This document shows, piece by piece, positions 55,372 to 63,217 of a DNA stretch of 64,000 bases. How positions within the stretch are numbered: position 1 is the first letter of the stretch; the number at the start of each line of letters is the position of its first letter. The stretch is from positions 7,328 through 71,327 of the IMG/VR virus record IMGVR_UViG_3300025574_000001; one strand, 5' to 3'. The notes beneath the pieces are model-generated. The model saw only the letters and a list, made by a program, of their open reading frames with translations. It was not told the origin of the DNA and did not search any database. This DNA is from a virus. Both the position numbers and the translations under genes were made by a program.

Positions 55372-55409
55372 CGACAGGTCAGTGTTTCTTGGGACGCACT
55401 GGCCTGTCG
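55372..55409 (+). terminator. Stem-loop / possible terminator
   Basis: 13-bp stem CGACAGGTCAGTG / CACTGGCCTGTCG with one G-U pair. Weak U tract. Confidence 0.55.
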
Positions 55410-55422
55410 GCTCTTCACTTAA

Positions 55423-56979
55423 ATGACGAATGCCCTTTCACTCTTTGCTGACAGACTTGACCCACCAGAGTCTCAGTATCTATTTCACCCTGAAAGATGG
55501 GTGCAAGATCGACTAGGTGAACACCTTTGGTCGAAGCAAATTGAGATGCACAATGCAGTCGTTCATCATCGTCACGTTGCTGTGCAGTCGTGCAACGACG
55601 TTGGCAAATCATTTGGGATGGCGCGACTTGCGGCCTGGTGGATTGAAGAACACGCACCCGGTGAAGCATTCGTTATCACCACTGCACCAACATGGTCGCA
55701 GGTGTCCGCGATTCTCTGGCGTGAACTTGCACGTGCACACAAGAAAGGAAAACTCCGTGGCCGCATCACTAGCATGTGCGAATGGAAACTTGACATGGGT
55801 GGTGGGCCAGATGAACTTGTCGCCTATGGCCGAAAGCCTGCGGACTATGATGCAGCCGGCTTCCTTGGAATTCACCAACGATACGTACTTGTCATTATCG
55901 ATGAAGGTGGAGGAGTCCCACAAGCCATCTATGACGCTGCTGAATCACTAGCAACGAATGAGTATGCACGCATCGTTGCAGTAGGAAACCCAGATGATCC
56001 TTCAAGTTACTTCGCAAAAGTCTGCGCACCCGGGAGTGGGTGGCACAACATTCGTATTGACTCGTTTGAAAGTCCAAACTTCACAGCGGCTGAAGTGAAC
56101 AAGTATCCAGAGGTGCGTTCACTGATGATTCGTGAAGGTATTGTACCAACGACTGAAGCAATCCCAGCCGATGTACGGGACCTCTTGTTGTCACCACTCT
56201 GGGTGAGTGAGCGAATTAAGCGATGGGGTATTGGGAGTCCTTTGTTTGAATCACGTGTGCGAGGTCGATTCCCTTTGATCACCAACAACACACTTATCCA
56301 ACCTCACTGGGTTGCGTTGGCGTGTTCACGTGACCTCATACCAGTCGCCACAGACCAAACCCTGGGCGTTGACGTTGCGAGGTATGGAACTGACCACAGC
56401 ATCATTCTGCATCGTCAGGGTGGTGTTGCGCGTGTTGTCGAAGACATCGCATACGGACCTGTGACAGAACTAGCGGGACGTGTTCAAATCCTCGGGCAAA
56501 CGTTGGGTGGAATGGTGCGACCCATTGCGAACATTGACGACACGGGTGTTGGTGGTGGTGTGACAGACATTCTTCGTGAAGATGGGTATCCTTGCATTGG
56601 ACTCATATCATCAGCCGCGTGTAGTCCGCAAGAAGTGTTAGAAGGGACAGGAAAGCCGAGGTTCGCAAATGCACGTAGTGAATGGTGGTGGAGGTTACGT
56701 GAGTGGCTTGCAGGCGTAAGCGGTACTGGAAACGATGGGCGTTTAGACCTCGACCCAGAAGACGAAGATCTTCAAGCACAGATCACTGGAATTCGTTACA
56801 AGATAAATCGTCATGGGCAAATACAAGTCGAGTCAAAAGATGAAATGAAACATCGCGGACTGCCCAGCCCAGACAGAGGGGACTCGTTGGTTTATTCGTT
56901 AGTTCCAACTGAAACGACTGATGGTGTTGCGATACTGGATGACATGGTGATGCATGACGTCTTAGATATGAGATGGTAA
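55423..56979 (+). CDS. terL: Terminase large subunit
   Basis: SCNDVGKS Walker A, IIDEGGG Walker B, VGNP, LGVDVARYGTD and SPDRGDS nuclease motifs. Confidence 0.93.
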   Translation: MTNALSLFADRLDPPESQYLFHPERWVQDRLGEHLWSKQIEMHNAVVHHRHVAVQSCNDVGKSFGMARLAAWWIEEHAPGEAFVITTAPTWSQVSAILWRELARAHKKGKLRGRITSMCEWKLDMGGGPDELVAYGRKPADYDAAGFLGIHQRYVLVIIDEGGGVPQAIYDAAESLATNEYARIVAVGNPDDPSSYFAKVCAPGSGWHNIRIDSFESPNFTAAEVNKYPEVRSLMIREGIVPTTEAIPADVRDLLLSPLWVSERIKRWGIGSPLFESRVRGRFPLITNNTLIQPHWVALACSRDLIPVATDQTLGVDVARYGTDHSIILHRQGGVARVVEDIAYGPVTELAGRVQILGQTLGGMVRPIANIDDTGVGGGVTDILREDGYPCIGLISSAACSPQEVLEGTGKPRFANARSEWWWRLREWLAGVSGTGNDGRLDLDPEDEDLQAQITGIRYKINRHGQIQVESKDEMKHRGLPSPDRGDSLVYSLVPTETTDGVAILDDMVMHDVLDMRW

Positions 56980-56988
56980 TCTAAAACC

Positions 56989-57549
56989 ATGAACGCGCCA
57001 ACAATCTTCCAGGAACAAGCGCACTATCGCAAGATCTTCGTCAAGCACAACGGCGATGGTCCCTGGGCATGTTTCTTCTGTGGTGATGAAGTATCGCGTG
57101 TGGAGAAGGATACACGCTTCCGTCTCGCGATTCATCATAAGAATCACAACCATGATGATGATCGAAAATTGAATTTAAAGCCAGCGCATAATTCATGTCA
57201 TTCACGGCATCATTCAATTGGACGTAAACATACACCTGAGACTCGTGCAAAACAACGTGCGGCAAGTATGGGGAATCAGCATGGTCTTAATCCTTCTGAT
57301 GAGACACGTGAAAAACTTCGTGTAGCATCGACTGGCAGACTTGGTCCTAATAGAGGAAAAATTCCATGGAACAAAGGCGCGGTCACACCCGATGAAGTAC
57401 GTGCAAAGATAAGTGAAGCACATAAAGGAAAAATCCTGTCACCGGAGACGCGTGCAAAAATAAGTAAAATTCACAGAGGAAAACCTAAGTCACCAGAGAC
57501 ACGGGCACGTATGAGTGATGCGGCAAAACGACGGAAGGTATCGCTATGA
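56989..57549 (+). CDS. HNH endonuclease with NUMOD3 repeats
   Basis: GPWACFFC...IHHKNHNHDDDRKLNL..AHNSCHSRHH, plus four ETR(A/E)K-type repeats. Confidence 0.88.
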   Translation: MNAPTIFQEQAHYRKIFVKHNGDGPWACFFCGDEVSRVEKDTRFRLAIHHKNHNHDDDRKLNLKPAHNSCHSRHHSIGRKHTPETRAKQRAASMGNQHGLNPSDETREKLRVASTGRLGPNRGKIPWNKGAVTPDEVRAKISEAHKGKILSPETRAKISKIHRGKPKSPETRARMSDAAKRRKVSL

Positions 57550-58940
57550 GCACTATGCAAACCGGCACTGAGGATGGTCCTACTTCAGAACGCGGGTACC
57601 CTCAGGATTTCCCAATGAACTGGAACATGTGGTCCGCTGATATGCAGGAATCGGCAGGTGATCTTCGGTGGCCGAACAGCATCAACGTGTATCACAAGAT
57701 GAGGACTGATGCGCAGATCTTCGCACTCACATCAGCCATCTCATTGCCAATTCGAAGTTCACGATGGGTCATCGACCCAAATGGTTCACGGGATGAAGTG
57801 ACGGAACTTGTTGCGAACGCAATGGGTCTTCCTATCAAAGGTCAAGAGGAACCGGCACCACGTAGTCGTCTTCGCTTTAATCACGATGAACATCTTGCAC
57901 ACGCGTTGCTTGCACTCATCTATGGATTCATGTTCTTTGAAGAAGTTGGTGAAATCAATGCGCAGATGCAGTGGCAGTTGACGAAACTCGCGCCACGTAT
58001 GCCACAGTCAATTCAGAAGATCAATGTGGATAAGGTCGGTGAACTTATTTCCATCGCGCAGTATTCGCGCCCAGGCGAACCAATGATGGAAGGTTTGGTC
58101 ATCCCAGCAAATGCACTCGCACCATACATATGGGGTAAGGAAGGTGCGAACTGGCTTGGACGTTCACTTCTTCGACCGTGTTATCGACACTGGCTCTTGA
58201 AGGACCGATTGATTCGTGTTGACGCGATGAAGAATGAACGATTCGGAATGGGTGTTCCAGTCGCCACCGCACCACAGGGCGCCACACGTGAGACCGTAGA
58301 ACGATATGCAGCGATGGCGCGGTCGGCGCGTGGTGATCCACAAGCCGGTGCGGGTATGGCGGCAGGTTCGAAGTTTTCAATTGAGGGTGTCACAGGAACG
58401 TTGCCTGACATTCTTAAGTCCATTACATATCACGATGAACAGATGGCGCGTTCATTCTTGGCAATGTTCCTTGGCCTTGGACAAGCAACACATGGTTCAC
58501 GTGCCCTGGGTGAATCATTCGTTGACTTCTTCAAGATGAGTGTTGATGCAACGGCAGGATGGTACAAGTCTTGCACAAACAAAAACGTCATCGAAGACAT
58601 TGTGAATTGGAACTACGGCATTGATGAGAACGCACCGCAGATCACCTGGGACGAAGATCCTGAATCACGTATGGATGCAACGGATCTTGTGGCATTGATT
58701 GAGAGCGGCACCATCGTCGTTGACAAAGAACTTCGCACATGGATCTCTGACAGGTGGGGTGTTAGTGACCCGGGTGCTGGCACGCCTGATCCTCCGGGTC
58801 CAAGTCCCACAGTTCAGTTGGTTCCTAACCTTCTCCCAGGTGAAAAGATTCCTGCACTTCCCGCTGGTGCTGCCCAAGCACGCGCACACCGCGCTGAAAT
58901 GCGTCGGCGTGAACGGTGGGATTCACAAAACGGCGGATGA
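57546..58940 (+). CDS. Portal protein (DUF935 / Mu gp29-like)
   Basis: YHKMRTDAQI, ALIYGFMFFEEV, GRSLLRPCY and GSRALGE. Follows TerL. Confidence 0.9.
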   Translation: MSTMQTGTEDGPTSERGYPQDFPMNWNMWSADMQESAGDLRWPNSINVYHKMRTDAQIFALTSAISLPIRSSRWVIDPNGSRDEVTELVANAMGLPIKGQEEPAPRSRLRFNHDEHLAHALLALIYGFMFFEEVGEINAQMQWQLTKLAPRMPQSIQKINVDKVGELISIAQYSRPGEPMMEGLVIPANALAPYIWGKEGANWLGRSLLRPCYRHWLLKDRLIRVDAMKNERFGMGVPVATAPQGATRETVERYAAMARSARGDPQAGAGMAAGSKFSIEGVTGTLPDILKSITYHDEQMARSFLAMFLGLGQATHGSRALGESFVDFFKMSVDATAGWYKSCTNKNVIEDIVNWNYGIDENAPQITWDEDPESRMDATDLVALIESGTIVVDKELRTWISDRWGVSDPGAGTPDPPGPSPTVQLVPNLLPGEKIPALPAGAAQARAHRAEMRRRERWDSQNGG

Positions 58941-60763
58941 CCATTCACCAAGTCCCAGTGTGGGAACTGTTTCCTACACGCGTGCAAGCGACAACTGATC
59001 CCACAACACTCGCTGAACTATTCGCACTTCTTAACGTCACTGACGCAACTGATGAAGAACAGTTACCGGCACTCTTCGATTACATCGACTCACCATTGTG
59101 GTTGTCTGCGTCCATCATCCTTATGGATGAAGTGGATGTGTTCCTCTATGCTCACGTTAAGATTGATGGTTCATATGTGCAAGCGGTGTTTGATGAGAGT
59201 GAAGAACGTGACGCGTCAGGCAAGTGGGTTGGCAATGGTGTATCATTCGCTAAGACGCAAGCGCGTGTGAGATTGCAGATACTTGGCAATCAAGCGCGCA
59301 CGATGTCAGGGTTGAATAAGAACGCACCAGTGATGATCGCTATCAACAAGGTGCCACAAGGAAGTACCACACCTCCGTATTCCAAAGATGAACACAGTGC
59401 TAGCAAAGAAACACATCACTGGGAGGATATGCCGACTGCATCTGACAATGACGCTGTGAAGACGGAAGGTGCAATCGTTTACATTCAAGTCACGGGCACC
59501 AAGGATAACTTCGTTGGGTGGATGGGAACTGGCAGTGTGGCACCCGTGTTGTTGTCAATGAATGGTGTTGACCTCTACAATAAGGATGGCACGCCAGCAG
59601 AAGGTGCGCCACTTGTACCCACTGTCATTCCTGGAGGAAAAGTACCGGGTGCACCAAAACCACAGGGCATCTCAAAGAAGGTTGAAGGTGATCACACTGG
59701 ACTTAACCTTAGTATTCCTGGTGTGTATGATCGTGAAGCGGCAGTTGCAAGTGCAAGAGAAGTTGGTCAGAAAATAGTGGATGCACAACTACTTGTTACA
59801 AAGGGTACTTCATCTAGTAGTCAAGATTTTGTAGATGCAGGAAAGTTAAAAGCGAATGTCGCTGCCACAATTGCCGCTAAGATGGGTGATAAGTATGATG
59901 CACAGATCATGCCTGAGGTTCGTGTACCCGGTGATCCTAATGGTGCAACGTATGCAGAGAAAAGTTTTTCAACTAAGTCAGCATCTGAACTTTTCACAAA
60001 GAATGATGTGTGGGAAAAGTACAATGCGCCAGATAGCACCACCAGATATAAGTATGTAGGTACGTTAGGTCAAACAGTTGTTGGACGTACATATGAAAAT
60101 GGTGGTATTCAAAATGTAGAGACAGTGGTCACTCTTGGACCAAAGGCACTTGGCCTTGGTAAAACGGGTGTAAGAACAAACATCACCGGCGACACACCCG
60201 AAGTTGCACAAGCACAACGTGAGGAAGGCGTAAGTAGTCTTGTTCACTTATGGGCACAGTCATCAAATGATGAACACCCAGTATCACTTGCTGTTCAAAA
60301 CTCTGCGGTTAAAGAATTTGGTCTTCCTGATACAAAAGCATGGGGTAAGGGTGGTTCACTTATGAAGAATGCAATTGTTCAAGTAGAGGCTGCAAAAGGT
60401 GAGGCTCTTCAAGCATTCTTACGCGCACAGTACGACGCCACACAGGAATTTTTTAAAGCGCAAGGTATCACCGCGGTGACGTTGTTTCGAGGTTTTAAAT
60501 CAAGTTCCACTGCGTTAAAAGCAAACTCAGGTGACCAAGTTAAAGTACAGATGAGACCGTTATCTTCATTCTCTTATTCGAGACAACAGGCGAATAAATT
60601 TGGTGGTGGTGGACCGAACAAGGTTCTTATCGTTGGTGTGATACCAATTGAAAACATTCTCTCAACGTCTCTCACAGGTGTCGGTTGTCAGAGTGAAGCA
60701 GAAGTTGTTGTGATTGGTGGAAAGAACATCTACACTCTTGACGCCAGGGCAGGAGGTTATTAA
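58937..60763 (+). CDS. Head-module protein with a C-terminal ADP-ribosyltransferase-like domain
   Basis: FDESEERDASGKW motif; C-terminus TLFRG...PLSSFS...ANKF...SEAEVVV. Confidence 0.65.
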   Translation: MTIHQVPVWELFPTRVQATTDPTTLAELFALLNVTDATDEEQLPALFDYIDSPLWLSASIILMDEVDVFLYAHVKIDGSYVQAVFDESEERDASGKWVGNGVSFAKTQARVRLQILGNQARTMSGLNKNAPVMIAINKVPQGSTTPPYSKDEHSASKETHHWEDMPTASDNDAVKTEGAIVYIQVTGTKDNFVGWMGTGSVAPVLLSMNGVDLYNKDGTPAEGAPLVPTVIPGGKVPGAPKPQGISKKVEGDHTGLNLSIPGVYDREAAVASAREVGQKIVDAQLLVTKGTSSSSQDFVDAGKLKANVAATIAAKMGDKYDAQIMPEVRVPGDPNGATYAEKSFSTKSASELFTKNDVWEKYNAPDSTTRYKYVGTLGQTVVGRTYENGGIQNVETVVTLGPKALGLGKTGVRTNITGDTPEVAQAQREEGVSSLVHLWAQSSNDEHPVSLAVQNSAVKEFGLPDTKAWGKGGSLMKNAIVQVEAAKGEALQAFLRAQYDATQEFFKAQGITAVTLFRGFKSSSTALKANSGDQVKVQMRPLSSFSYSRQQANKFGGGGPNKVLIVGVIPIENILSTSLTGVGCQSEAEVVVIGGKNIYTLDARAGGY

Positions 60764-60765
60764 TA

Positions 60766-61854
60766 ATGACTGATGAAGTTGAAGAATTAGAGTATGATGA
60801 GGATGATGATAATGAAGATTGGATAAAGCCATATGCCTGGGATCTTTATCGTATGGGAACACTCATCACAACACTCGACGACCTTTTCTTTGTGAATGAT
60901 CTTGTTGACGCGAACCCAGATGATCAAGTTAAGTTCCTTGAAGAACTGATTGTGCTCCCGTGTTATGAAGCAGTCCCACCAGAGTTGGAGAAAGAAGTCA
61001 ATGCATTCTTAGACGCACAATCAAGTCTTATCACAGTCGTGAATGTACGGGCACGTCAACAGACACTTCACACGAACGTGATTGGACATCGTGAGCCTTC
61101 ACCCGTGGAGGCTGCTGCTAAGACAAATTTTGCGACCATTCAACAACAGTGGCAGAACCAGACTGATGCACTTGTGCAACAGTATTCCGCTGTGCGTGAC
61201 CAACAGATTCAAGAACTCTCTGACCAGATTCAAGAAGCGGTTGACAATGGTGATGTGGATGCGCTTGCTGCAATCATGGCCGACACCACTGGTGAAGATC
61301 TTATTGCACAGCACATGACACAGATGATGGAGAACGCAATCGTCACAGCGAAGACAGAAGCGCAATCCCAGGGAGTGATGATCCCATTGATTAACACTGC
61401 GGACTTGACGAAACAAATGTCGAACCAAGCAAGTGCAGTCGCGGGTCTTATGAATCGAAGTATCTCTAACACCGCAGCCACACAAGCATTGACAAGATAT
61501 GGTGTGCAGAATCTTTCGGGTGCTGAAGTTGCGGGCGCTGTGACGGAACACTTACAAGATCTTTCACCCGCGTACCTCAATGATATGTTGGGTGGTGCGT
61601 TAACACAAGCGCAAAACGCGGGACGCATTGAAGTAATGCAACAAGCACCTGGTGATGCATATAGTTCAGAGTTGTTAGACGAATCAACTTGTGAAGAGTG
61701 TGAAGCGATTGACGGGACTGAGTATGATTCATTAGCAGATGCACAATTGGATTATCCCACAGGAGGTTATTCTGAATGCCTCGGTGGACCGAGATGTCGT
61801 GGAACTATCGTGATGGTTTACGCTGAGGCTGATTCATCTGATTCTTCCTCTTAA
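60766..61854 (+). CDS. MuF-like minor head (morphogenesis) protein
   Basis: TQAQNAGR...YSSELLDESTCEECEAIDG...CLGGPRCRGTIV. Confidence 0.85.
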   Translation: MTDEVEELEYDEDDDNEDWIKPYAWDLYRMGTLITTLDDLFFVNDLVDANPDDQVKFLEELIVLPCYEAVPPELEKEVNAFLDAQSSLITVVNVRARQQTLHTNVIGHREPSPVEAAAKTNFATIQQQWQNQTDALVQQYSAVRDQQIQELSDQIQEAVDNGDVDALAAIMADTTGEDLIAQHMTQMMENAIVTAKTEAQSQGVMIPLINTADLTKQMSNQASAVAGLMNRSISNTAATQALTRYGVQNLSGAEVAGAVTEHLQDLSPAYLNDMLGGALTQAQNAGRIEVMQQAPGDAYSSELLDESTCEECEAIDGTEYDSLADAQLDYPTGGYSECLGGPRCRGTIVMVYAEADSSDSSS

Positions 61855-62380
61855 CATCCGGGTAGTCGTAACGACGATGACATGATGTGCAGAGTTCTAA
61901 GTAATCATTTCGTCGCGATGTGTAATGACGACCATCTATCCAGATGAATTCAGTTCTCCCATGGATAAGCGCAAGTTCTTTGGCAGTACCACCGCAATGT
62001 TCACACACACCAATCCATCGTTCTTTCTTATGACGTCCGTGCCATGTGCCGTATGAAAGTACATGATCATATCGACACTTGAGAGAACAGAAGTTCATCT
62101 TAAACGATTCTGATTTTGCACACGTGAAATTTTTCTTACATCGAGGACATGTCTTTGTCACACGTCGTCCTATTGTTCGATTGCCAACCTTCTTATGAAA
62201 TTCTGAACTGGAATGCCAGCACAGCAATGAACAGTATTGATTCTTTGCAGGACTCTTACATGTCTTACACTTATTTCTTTTAACTGGTCCACCGCGTCGT
62301 TTTGCCCAACGGTTTATTGCTGCACATGACTTACATCGTGGTCCTCGCACAATTTGTTTTTGACAATCAAGACATTGCAT
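61805..62380 (-). CDS. HNH endonuclease with Zn-ribbon repeats (antisense insertion)
   Basis: CxxC repeats and YCS/FCS motifs; C-terminal CEHC...NDYLELCTSCHRRYD. Confidence 0.75.
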   Translation of the reverse strand: MQCLDCQKQIVRGPRCKSCAAINRWAKRRGGPVKRNKCKTCKSPAKNQYCSLLCWHSSSEFHKKVGNRTIGRRVTKTCPRCKKNFTCAKSESFKMNFCSLKCRYDHVLSYGTWHGRHKKERWIGVCEHCGGTAKELALIHGRTEFIWIDGRHYTSRRNDYLELCTSCHRRYDYPDVKRKNQMNQPQRKPSR

Positions 62381-62433
62381 AACAATTATTTTAGCGTATT
62401 ACTTGACGTGTGTTACTACTTTCTGATGTGATG

Positions 62434-62446
62434 ACCCGCTATAGTT
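62434..62446 (+). promoter_or_regulatory. Promoter-like motif ACCCGCTATAGTT
   Basis: Identical 13-mer to the leftward motif at 36004-35992. Upstream of an AAGGAGG RBS. Confidence 0.55.
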
Positions 62447-62476
62447 CAACTCGATTCCCTACAAGGAGGAAGTGTA

Positions 62477-62854
62477 ATGACTTATCCTGTGATTCCGTCG
62501 GATACTCCGAGTTCATACATCAACCCGGACCCGACACCAACCATTGAAGAATTCAATGGCACACTGGTCGCCAACACTGTTGACGTGCTTACATTTACGT
62601 TGAATCACGTTGGCGTAAAGATCACGAACATCAGTGGTGCAGCCGTCATCAACTATACGGTGGATGGTAGCACACCTGCCGCTGGGACGTCGCCGGAGTT
62701 GGCTGCTATCGCTGGTGCGTCGGTCATCGTGTCGTTCGATAGTGAAGACCTCCCAGTTGTGAAGTTACTTTCAACCGGCGTACCCACCATCGCGGTGCAG
62801 GGTCTTGATGAACTTGAACTCTTGCAGGACGACCAGACTGTGCGTGACGCTTAG
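62477..62854 (+). CDS. Hypothetical beta-rich protein
   Basis: GVKITNISGAAVINYTVDGSTP. Strong RBS. Confidence 0.6.
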   Translation: MTYPVIPSDTPSSYINPDPTPTIEEFNGTLVANTVDVLTFTLNHVGVKITNISGAAVINYTVDGSTPAAGTSPELAAIAGASVIVSFDSEDLPVVKLLSTGVPTIAVQGLDELELLQDDQTVRDA

Positions 62855-62857
62855 CAC

Positions 62858-63217
62858 ATGTCTAACTGGGTGTCGCTTGATGCGATGGCAGAGAATGAAG
62901 CAAAACGTAATCCTCCCTACTTTGGTAGTGAGGTCAACAATCCTGACTGGACATATGAAGACCCAGCGGTAACAGTTACTCCAGGAGCACCTTCACCTGG
63001 TGAACTTTGGTTGCTTGCTGACTACGATCCTTTGTTCTACGTTGGCCTTATGGCGAAATACGGATACACGAACAATGCGTGGAAGGCAATTCAGAACGCG
63101 CCTCCTCCAATCAAACCTTACATCCCACCGCGACCTGTACCCGCATACATCAGTGGATTAGATGGAACTGGTGCTGGAGACTTCGATGGGTTGACTGCAC
63201 CGGAGTTCACCTCATGA
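62858..63217 (+). CDS. Hypothetical protein
   Basis: 119 aa Pro-rich ORF. Confidence 0.55.
   Translation: MSNWVSLDAMAENEAKRNPPYFGSEVNNPDWTYEDPAVTVTPGAPSPGELWLLADYDPLFYVGLMAKYGYTNNAWKAIQNAPPPIKPYIPPRPVPAYISGLDGTGAGDFDGLTAPEFTS

Follow-up and report, generated by a model that had tools for sequence, protein, structure and literature searches.

Two adjacent proteins of a phage head module, an ADP-ribosyltransferase (ART)-like protein (58937–60763) and a MuF-like protein (60766–61854), are confirmed to have homologous N-termini. The shared segment is a small autonomous domain of about 65–80 aa, here named type-I. Across uncultured phages it is genetically coupled to a DRAT-like ART domain, which is a new finding. 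Type-I is probably a partner of the ART, either a dock or an inhibitor, rather than a general tag for capsid loading. The loading of co-injected proteins is known in detail for very few phages, and for MuF toxins and polyvalent proteins it has been inferred mainly from fusions.

The two proteins and their shared domain

The window is a stretch of 64,000 nucleotides from IMG/VR virus record IMGVR_UViG_3300025574_000001; the features described here are all on the + strand. The gene order is TerL, HNH, portal, cargo, MuF-like, and relatives continue with protease-scaffold, decoration and capsid genes. The portal protein (57546–58940) is Mu-like or P23-45-like (Pfam Portal_Mu, E 3.9e-45; P23-45_portal_barrel, E 1.5e-19). 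Its stop codon overlaps, as ATGA, the ATG at 58937 that opens the ART gene, a start conserved among orthologues. This gene encodes P0001, a cargo protein of 608 aa (58937–60763) that consists of a truncated type-I domain, a header peptide, an unknown middle region and a C-terminal DRAT-like ART domain. P0002 (60766–61854) follows, a divergent MuF-like minor head protein of 362 aa with an N-terminal type-I domain. The order portal, P0001 gene, MuF is kept at two related loci (L002 and L004) and on the P0004 contig.

The initial annotation had aligned 48 residues of each protein without gaps and suggested that two otherwise unrelated head proteins share an unnamed acidic domain. The aligned stretches are residues 23–70 of P0001, preceded by WELF, and residues 35–82 of P0002, preceded by WDLY; the 16 of 48 identities are as counted there, and both segments are acidic, with a pI of about 4.05. 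BLASTP of the full-length proteins gave one significant HSP (20/65 identical, E 9e-4) and all others had E > 2, in agreement with the claim that the proteins are otherwise unrelated. With a pairwise E value of no better than 9e-4 between two acidic segments, the match might be suspected of being due to chance or composition. Composition-preserving shuffles speak against this. The Smith-Waterman score of the N-terminal segments, 62, lies well away from the shuffle mean of 29 (sd 5.5) and was reached by 2/5000 shuffles of one segment and 1/5000 of the other. With full-length proteins, 3/1000 shuffles attained the observed score. The conserved columns of the two N-termini coincide. In hhalign, an alignment of ART-family N-termini (A1) matched one of MuF-family N-termini (A2), both with orthologues, at a probability of 96% and E 3e-9 over 97 columns. 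Comparison with A4, an alignment of 36 stand-alone type-I proteins that includes neither window protein, gave 96.8% and E 2.2e-10, and a profile search with an HMM made from these unrelated stand-alone proteins alone matched both window copies. Because of these profile results, a chance match is effectively refuted. AlphaFold predictions of both N-termini show an identical order of four helices, from alignments that shared most rows and are not independent. The unnamed domain suggested earlier is therefore real.

The two copies differ, a point not made in the initial annotation. Copy 1 (P0001 residues 7–74; 58955–59158), found by HMM, hhalign (E 2.2e-10 against A4) and AlphaFold, has only the helical core; it starts at PVWELF and lacks the N-x-D-W-x-K strand. 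It is matched by the A3 profile at 58937–59173 (E 9e-23) and by the stand-alone-only A4 profile at 58961–59152 (E 2e-3), and its predicted helices comprise residues 25–31, 39–50, 53–57 and 60–73. Copy 2 (P0002 residues about 10–96; 60793–61053), found by HMM and AlphaFold, is complete (E 2e-21 with A4; 9e-32 with A3), with its strand, NEDWIK, at 60811–60828. It starts 53 nt downstream of where the DRAT-like domain ends; the strand and a position after an ART domain are both confined to this MuF copy. An AlphaFold model of P0002 residues 14–98 (pLDDT 86) consists of a beta-hairpin and four helices. Motif scans placed the header peptide of P0001 (ERDASGKW ... SFAKTQ; 59189–59260) after its N-module. 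The motif E-x-R-D-x-x-G-[RK]-W follows the N-module in every cargo protein of related loci, usually with a glycine run next, and occurs once in the six-frame translation of the window.

The MuF label given to P0002 in the initial annotation holds as that of a divergent relative, at scores below the curated cut-offs. Against TIGR01641 (phageSPP1_gp7), residues 253–350 score 19.7 bits (cut-off 39.65, E 8.5e-4) and cover profile positions 16–107 of 109; against PF04233 (Phage_Mu_F) the score is 12.4 bits (cut-off 29.6, E 0.28), with weak matches to this family in 10/32 members of the P0002 family. The match to phrog_595 has E 2e-12. Like MuF and SPP1 gp7 proteins, P0002 is encoded shortly after the portal gene, among the packaging and head genes, and some of its relatives are fused to portal C-termini. 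The conserved MuF-like body begins with G-H-R-x-P ... E-x-A-A-K-T-[ND]-F (61084–61131; alignments A2 and A9), and the portal-MuF fusions P0037 and P0041 join at the point equivalent to the G-H-R-x-P motif. By sequence, P0002 would be a divergent relative of MuF rather than a demonstrated member.

The ART-like label for P0001 was borne out. Its DRAT-like R-S-E domain extends over residues about 420–601 (60194–60739). Residues 498–596 match Pfam DRAT (PF07357) at 27.8 bits, above the cut-off of 25 (E 1.7e-6), in a match that spans only profile positions 157–251 of 256; a profile search of PDB sequences gave no significant match. The candidate catalytic residues, R518 (LFRGF), S543–S546 (RPLSSFS) and E587/E589 (SEAEVV), are intact. 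Alignment A6 shows no variation in the R-G, S-[SF]-S and E-x-E columns, and the R/S/E/E signature is kept in 85/89 distinct DRAT-like domains. Because these residues are conserved, the enzyme is probably active and would be worth controlling. The ART is the one recognisable enzyme domain of P0001, which otherwise contains a region of about 300 aa without assignment.

The type-I family and its coupling to the ART

Type-I consists of a beta-hairpin that carries N-x-D-W-x-K...W-D, followed by four helices. Among 1.84 billion representatives it was found in 228 protein clusters at E <= 1e-3, and no match was found in Pfam, PHROG or PDB. A widespread family previously without annotation is now defined. 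Small stand-alone proteins make up over half of the listed members: of the 146 matches that were new among the best 150 of 228, 82 are free-standing proteins of 70–118 aa. The domain is the extreme N-terminus in 36/39 distinct ORFs. It heads MuF proteins of two unrelated subfamilies, the S78 prohead protease and Zeta kinases; further ORFs carry ADPrib_exo_Tox, ART-PolyVal plus MuF, DUF7178, other ARTs or polyvalent proteins, or nothing behind it. The fold and the invariant residues are conserved down to about 30% identity, including in free-standing genes.

The coupling is seen from both sides. Among non-redundant DRAT-like domains, 32/82 have a type-I start within 200 nt downstream, 30 of them in the next ORF and 2 in the same ORF. 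At 36/48 distinct junctions that follow a C-terminal DRAT-like domain, the next ORF begins with type-I or its N-terminal strand; the strand motif N[AEDYS]DWx[KR] lies 6–66 nt past the stop codon, where about 0.012 per junction is expected, and most junctions without an HMM match nonetheless start with it. From the other side, 19 loci were found through type-I alone, and a DRAT-like domain ends within 250 nt upstream in 15 of them and within 1.3 kb in 17. Three loci (L013, L077 and L082) have both domains in one chain, with the strand motif kept internally. This strongly non-random rule, ART then type-I, makes a specific protein-protein interaction testable.

The pair is constant while its flanks vary. 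Upstream proteins range from 441 to > 2235 aa and differ in their N-terminal parts, and the pair occurs on Portal_Mu-type and Phage_portal-type backbones, on contigs of 10 to 149 kb. In 37/42 coupled cases the protein ends 1–33 residues past the ART domain, and about half of the downstream type-I ORFs are 67–114 aa. Many junctions have overlapping stop and start codons (ATGA or GTGA), as expected for co-translated partners. MuF and Zeta proteins preceded by a DRAT-like domain (L009, L104, L105) bear type-I, whereas MuF relatives that lack one (L005, L007) bear a different N-module.

The rule has exceptions. About a quarter of C-terminal DRAT-like domains have neither motif nor type-I next, and no type-I was detectable for internal tandem DRAT-like copies, such as the seven in L070, which retain the catalytic signature as often as coupled ones. 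A strict one-to-one immunity requirement is therefore unsupported. In the window itself the MuF copy obeys the rule but the P0001 copy does not: it follows the portal gene, not an ART domain, and the rule does not account for it.

What type-I may do

We consider it possible, with a probability of about 0.45, that type-I on the MuF protein binds the upstream ART domain, tethers it to MuF and probably masks it until ejection. In this mechanism the type-I domain of P0002 would hold the C-terminal DRAT-like domain of P0001 and, via MuF, link it to the portal, so that the ART would be built into the procapsid. The ART would probably be kept masked in the producing cell until it entered the next host. 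Stand-alone type-I proteins of other phages would only mask, like an immunity protein, and fused copies would connect an ART-bearing protein to whatever they head. The truncated copy of P0001, without the hairpin strand, may work in cis or serve to join additional copies; it might also be cut off at the header peptide behind it. The initial annotation had suggested either a tag for capsid loading or ejection or a module that neutralises the ART; context evidence favours a specific link between type-I and the ART. A partner or neutraliser fits better than a generic tag because of the 36/48 junctions and because over half of the listed members stand alone, with nothing to load. A role in cargo assembly stays plausible, since fused type-I domains head capsid-interior proteins (MuF, prohead protease, effectors). 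It counts against the partner reading that an immunity-type domain would not normally be expected to head a protease or other toxins.

The main rival is that type-I is a generic handle for capsid loading or portal docking that brings whatever it heads into the procapsid, as the T4 capsid-targeting sequence and the MuF domain of MuF toxins do, the ART being just the usual last module of the polyvalent protein upstream. The nearly constant N-terminal position of the domain, on proteins known or predicted to lie inside the capsid, fits such a handle, as do the header peptide and glycine-rich linker behind type-I in close relatives. Two further N-modules, types II and III, hold the same position on cargo and MuF proteins, and some relatives fuse MuF directly to the portal where the N-module would be. 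A handle is still an unlikely answer. It has no cargo to load in the stand-alone proteins and is internal in the fusions at L013, L077 and L082. Nor does a handle account for the regularity with which a DRAT-like ART precedes type-I in upstream proteins that are otherwise variable, or for MuF and Zeta proteins carrying type-I only with such a domain before them. Since adjacent genes are co-inherited, part of the coupling could be cassette ancestry and not function. Taken to its limit, this would mean that the ART 3′ end and the type-I 5′ segment do not interact directly but travel together, as the edge of a recombination cassette or as a structural linker where polyvalent proteins are split; cassette shuffling would then have left both window copies as by-products. 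Modules are indeed shuffled: type-II sits on MuF proteins and also on a cargo protein with an ART from another phage (57% identity, E 3e-29), and the C-terminal half of this cargo protein matches P0001 (E 1e-42). Header peptides conserved at module boundaries could supply homology for recombination, and the ART/type-I unit is sometimes one chain and sometimes two. Pure co-inheritance is improbable, given that the fold and invariant residues persist to about 30% identity even in free-standing proteins, which points to selection for a function of their own, and that linkage alone does not explain a pair that persists across very different phage backbones.

It is highly improbable that type-I is an adaptor for a host protein such as RNA polymerase, which would aim enzymes after injection, the stand-alone forms being small host-factor binders. 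A small acidic helical domain on several different enzymes would suit this role, but it is also present on MuF and the prohead protease, whose work is head assembly rather than action on the host. Under this model the coupling to the ART would have no explanation, and no resemblance to a known host-binding domain was detected. A broader scheme is a split polyvalent protein, in which matched C- and N-terminal modules would hold the cargo proteins in a non-covalent chain that follows gene order and ends on MuF. Such a docking code would set which effectors are packaged and perhaps their order of exit; the ART would also be a docking platform and type-I also its inhibitor. A few related phages have the order portal then type-III, Zeta then type-II, ART then type-I. 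This extension is distinctly unlikely as a whole. If type-I is an inhibitor or dock of the ART, as in the preferred reading, it would offer a compact tool to control or tether ADP-ribosyltransferases and a marker for finding packaged effectors in metagenomic phages.

Comparison with known systems

Temperate phages encode MuF polymorphic toxins (Jamet et al., 2017; PMC5576092). These resemble the present system in their head-module site by the portal gene, in pairing a MuF-family protein with a toxin-type enzyme, ARTs included, and in ending with the toxin domain, behind which comes a small ORF with a proposed immunity role; the toxins are presumed to be delivered inside the virion. Here, in contrast, two ORFs in different frames divide the parts between them: P0001, encoded upstream, has the ART and P0002 the MuF-like body, and P0002 scores as MuF below the Pfam and TIGRFAM cut-offs. 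What links the two is a domain without a previous name, which heads the MuF protein and is elsewhere found by itself or attached to other cargo. MuF and toxin in a single polypeptide (PMC5576092) are not found in the window, but are fused, as ART and MuF, in relatives L013 and L085.

Polyvalent proteins of phages and conjugative elements (Iyer et al., 2017, PMC5512222; Iyer et al., 2022, PMC9503650) are likewise large and multi-domain, encoded among head genes, and composed of ARTs, Zeta-type kinases, 2H phosphoesterases, SNF2 helicases and MuF; a single protein can contain several ART copies. The searched passages of these papers make no mention of type-I or of its coupling to this ART. Relatives of P0001 of this kind are L010, L013, L023, L070 and L085, and the polyvalent make-up, with at least two disparate effector domains in a single chain, is clear in L013 (MuF, ART and SNF2), L023 (Zeta and 2H), L012 (GNAT and ART) and L070 (seven ART copies). 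The ART here has an R-S-ExE signature and a Pfam DRAT match and occurs in giant proteins with up to seven copies. The repertoire of head-packaged ARTs is thereby extended to an R-S-E, DraT-like clade.

T4 Alt is an R-S-E ART packaged in the head and injected with the DNA, and an N-terminal capsid-targeting sequence directs T4 internal proteins into the prohead (PMC5512222, PMC3012670). The likeness lies in the head-packaged R-S-E ART and the N-terminal element. The T4 element is a short peptide, some 10 residues at a free N-terminus, that the prohead protease cuts off, whereas type-I is a folded domain of 65–80 aa, often free-standing (82/146 among the best 150 listed) or internal (L013, L077, L082), and its link is with the ART domain on the protein encoded before it.

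In polymorphic toxin-immunity pairs (Zhang et al., 2012; PMC3482391), a toxin domain at the extreme C-terminus and then a small ORF form the usual syntax, MuF toxins included (PMC5576092, PMC3482391). The layout here is alike: a C-terminal ART, 1–33 residues from the end in 37/42, and a small acidic protein directly downstream on the same strand, its type-I ORF 6–66 nt past the stop and often with overlapping stop and start codons, among shuffled flanks. It is unlike these pairs in that the putative immunity element is often joined to the front of whichever structural or effector protein comes next, and in some cases to the toxin itself, that many DRAT-like copies have no detectable partner, and that the target cell would be the next host of the phage, not a competitor of the producer.

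In modular polyketide and non-ribosomal peptide synthases a C-terminal docking element is matched to an N-terminal element of the next-encoded polypeptide, which keeps split multi-domain assembly lines in order. Any likeness to type-I would be in gene-order grammar only, with no relationship of sequence or fold. The ART to type-I arrangement is a new variant among phage head-packaged effector systems.

Two adjacent head proteins with a common N-terminal domain

The window belongs to an uncultured phage, and its own protein record is on a contig of 75,042 bp. The head genes run from the large subunit of terminase (55423–56979) through an HNH/NUMOD3 gene (56989–57549) to a Mu-type portal gene (57546–58940; Portal_Mu, E 3.9e-45). 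These are followed by P0001, an ART-like cargo protein of 608 aa (58937–60763), the C-terminus of which exceeds the gathering score of Pfam DRAT, and by P0002 (60766–61854, 362 aa), a divergent MuF/SPP1-gp7-like protein. PHROGs has no family for P0001, nor did it match any NCBIfam model. P0002 matched phrog_595 in PHROGs and gave an E value of 8.5e-4 with TIGR01641, which is under the cut-off; its matches to PF04233 are weak, as they are in 10 of 32 homologues. The order portal, ART protein, MuF is kept in the few close relatives found, and a blastn search with 55400–63000 returned no match in the deposited phage collection.

The HNH/NUMOD3 gene, which separates terminase and portal, is missing at this position in two related loci (L002 and L009), and is therefore probably a mobile homing-endonuclease insertion. 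A cysteine-rich ORF of 191 aa on the minus strand (61805–62380), with several C-x-x-C pairs, shares its end with the MuF-like gene, the final 50 nt of which it overlaps. In its place relatives have small plus-strand genes, and the ORF may likewise be a nuclease-like insertion.

The peptides on which the initial annotation based a domain common to P0001 and P0002 are present where it had located them, and 16 of 48 residues are identical in an ungapped alignment. BLASTP of one protein against the other yielded this HSP (E 9e-4) and no other, and its Smith-Waterman score was reached by just 1–2 of 5000 composition-preserving shuffles. The relationship thus proposed was borne out in profile-profile comparisons, with E 3e-9 when orthologues of both proteins were included and E 2.2e-10 against a stand-alone family containing neither. 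In the joint alignment invariant or near-invariant columns coincide at W9, T24, L28, Q42, P53, L62, E65 and F69 (P0001 numbering). AlphaFold modeled residues 14–98 of P0002 confidently (pLDDT 86) as a beta-hairpin followed by helices of about 7, 11, 5 and 25 residues, and residues 1–100 of P0001 acceptably (pLDDT 75.5) with the same four helices. The predicted folds agree, and since most alignment rows were common to both predictions this agreement is non-independent evidence.

The type-I family and its coupling to the ART domain

The common domain, here called type-I, is a genuine family without a name. Searching 1.84 billion representatives with a profile built from both window families brought up 228 proteins at E ≤ 1e-3, of which 35 reach E ≤ 1e-10. 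Its forms were counted in 146 newly returned matches within the best 150 of the 228. The domain stands alone in 82 proteins of 70–118 aa. Another 42 have 119–250 aa, and in many of these type-I is at the C-terminal end, preceded by a short extra segment. The remaining 22 are longer, and nearly all carry type-I at the N-terminus; among them are Zeta-toxin kinases and one ADPrib_exo_Tox ART. Another exceeds the Pfam cut-off for Phage_Mu_F, and its similarity to P0002 is confined to type-I. In loci obtained later type-I heads an S78 prohead protease, an ART-PolyVal protein with MuF, a Zeta plus 2H polyvalent protein and a DUF7178 protein. The first of these (L049:7610-9049, 479 aa) has an N-terminal type-I domain joined to a Caudovirus prohead serine protease (Peptidase_S78, E 8e-27), and is encoded directly 3′ of a DRAT-like domain.

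There is no type-I model in Pfam or PHROGs. Foldseek searches of PDB and BFVD with the predicted structure gave no convincing match (E > 2), nor did a shape search of the ESM Atlas (TM ≤ 0.53); the best Z score among 48,161 PDB representatives (VIA-align) was 4.7, a value common to helical models in general. No PDB sequence was matched significantly by the profile of type-I, of the ART domain or of the MuF family, and a feature-based Atlas search started from one stand-alone protein scored at most 0.83, an uninformative level. A scan of GTDB genomes with a type-I subfamily found one locus, on a contig of 149 kb from an Actinomycetes MAG (L107, JAEWRC010000104.1), in which type-I follows a protein of 1660 aa or more with a DRAT-like domain at its end. 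This hints at actinobacterial hosts, at a prophage or at a phage that was mis-binned.

Of the five loci that type-I alone led to first, four have a homologue of P0001 residues 415–600 directly upstream. The alignment built from this DRAT-like domain (A6), with which 79 viral loci were fetched, has invariant R-G, S-x-S and E-x-E columns. All loci compared are metagenomic and in part redundant. Among 82 non-redundant DRAT-like copies, 32 have a type-I start no more than 200 nt downstream, in a separate ORF (30) or in the same ORF (2); in multi-copy tandem proteins type-I comes after the last copy. In 37 of 42 coupled cases the ART domain closes its ORF, leaving 1–33 residues beyond it, and stop and start codons overlap at many of the junctions. 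At junctions lacking an HMM match, the next ORF mostly opens with the first strand of type-I (...D...N-A-D-W-x-K...). Of 48 distinct junctions, 36 carry this strand motif 6–66 nt past the stop codon, where the background expectation is about 0.012 per junction. Approached from the type-I side, the ART domain ends within 250 nt upstream in 15 of 19 loci and within 1.3 kb in 17; this small, partly redundant sample came from viral, metagenome and GTDB scans and protein look-ups, and was seeded with a narrower subfamily (A5) rather than the broad 36-sequence alignment. The rule of ART followed by type-I also holds in L108, a locus with another type of portal (Phage_portal fused to MuF). Both domains occur in a single chain, with N-x-D-W-x-K internal, in L013, in L077 and twice in L082.

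The type-I domain of P0002 is complete, with NEDWIK at 60811–60828, and starts 53 nt beyond the ART domain, as a standard case of the rule. The copy in P0001, which begins at PVWELF without the first strand and lies 3′ of the portal gene, is an exception, and one that is kept in its four orthologues. In L108 a P0001-like protein has a complete type-I domain, positioned after an ART domain.

Giant phage proteins, in L070 (1201-8520) and also in L074, L085 and L010, carry up to seven tandem DRAT-like R-S-ExE ART domains. With a spacing of about 320 aa, the copies all retain the catalytic signature. The 2017 survey of polyvalent proteins describes multi-copy ARTs for the H-Y-D clade only (PMC5512222).

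Other N-terminal modules and header peptides

The MuF homologues of P0002 begin with type-I, with a distinct 95-aa module (type-II), or as a fusion to the portal. In the fusions (P0037, P0041, P0043 and P0045) the MuF-like homologue is attached to the C-terminus of a Mu-type portal, and the join is at a G-H-R-x-P / R-R-Q-P-Y motif, the site at which free MuF proteins carry their N-terminal module. The ART cargo P0079 (L009:4947-7016) also starts with type-II, which over 97 aa has 57% identity to the module on another phage's MuF (E 3e-29); in its C-terminal half P0079 shows homology to P0001 (E 1e-42). Residues ~150–290, which separate type-II from the DRAT-like domain, give a weak PARP-like match (E 0.16) and may form a second ART of another clade. 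A third module, type-III, occurs on Zeta-kinase or ART cargo directly after the portal.

In all these cargo proteins the N-terminal module is followed by a header peptide, E-x-R-D-x-x-G-[RK]-W, usually with a glycine run next. It is present twice in P0077, at module boundaries, and once in the window, at residues 90–97 of P0001 (59204–59227). A second kind, G-D-V-x-G-H-x-F-H-G-N-Q-[YH], is found in the L108 cargo (L108:4136-7888) and in P0090. Such peptides mark module boundaries in P0076–P0079, the L108 cargo and P0001, and may serve for cleavage, recognition or recombination.

In close relatives the module tracks the upstream gene and not the protein that carries it. MuF carries type-I where an ART precedes it (L009, L105) and type-II where a Zeta protein does (L005, L007, L104). 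Zeta itself starts with type-III when encoded behind the portal (L005, L007, L009) and with type-I when encoded behind an ART (L104). The apparent grammar is that a portal is followed by type-III, a Zeta kinase, with or without an ORF of 43–55 aa, by type-II, and a DRAT-like ART by type-I. Only the ART/type-I pairing has been sampled broadly, and the type-II and type-III rules are not taken as established since they are based on about five closely related contigs.

Possible roles of type-I and relation to known systems

The two domains stay paired although their flanks vary, are tightly spaced and occasionally fused, and type-I also exists in a free-standing form. These features suggest that type-I acts jointly with the DRAT-like domain, most simply by binding it; we give this reading a probability of roughly 0.45. 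Type-I could cover an active ART inside the producing cell. In fusions with MuF, a prohead protease or another effector, it could hold the ART-bearing protein at a component of the capsid interior, so that the two would be packaged together. Masking and tethering are both plausible, and compatible with each other. A complex prediction for the DRAT-like domain (A6) and type-I (A7) scored 0.00 with low fold confidence for both chains, and speaks neither for nor against binding. Strict immunity is not supported: it predicts that ART copies without a following type-I should have lost their catalytic residues, and these are kept. Counting further against it, about one-quarter of C-terminal DRAT-like copies have no recognisable partner downstream.

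The main rival, a generic handle for loading proteins into the head, accounts for the N-terminal position of type-I and for the kinds of proteins it heads; it leaves unexplained both the stand-alone majority and the specific ART neighbour upstream, and we consider it rather unlikely. Less likely still is that ART and type-I are simply linked as a cassette, and a role for type-I as an adaptor to a host target is improbable.

The system falls among the head-packaged effectors, which include MuF polymorphic toxins, polyvalent proteins and T4 Alt. In SPP1, MuF proteins are located at the portal (summarised in PMC5576092), and phage ARTs encoded beside head genes are generally assumed to be packaged and injected (PMC5512222, PMC9503650). 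The portions of the literature searched on these effector systems make no mention of type-I or of its pairing with this ART. Unlike the known effectors, the ART described here is on a separate upstream protein, unfused to MuF, and is of the R-S-E, DraT-like kind, with relatives that have up to seven copies per protein. Toxin-immunity pairs of polymorphic toxins (PMC3482391) and MuF toxins with small downstream ORFs (PMC5576092) have a gene syntax identical to that of ART and type-I.
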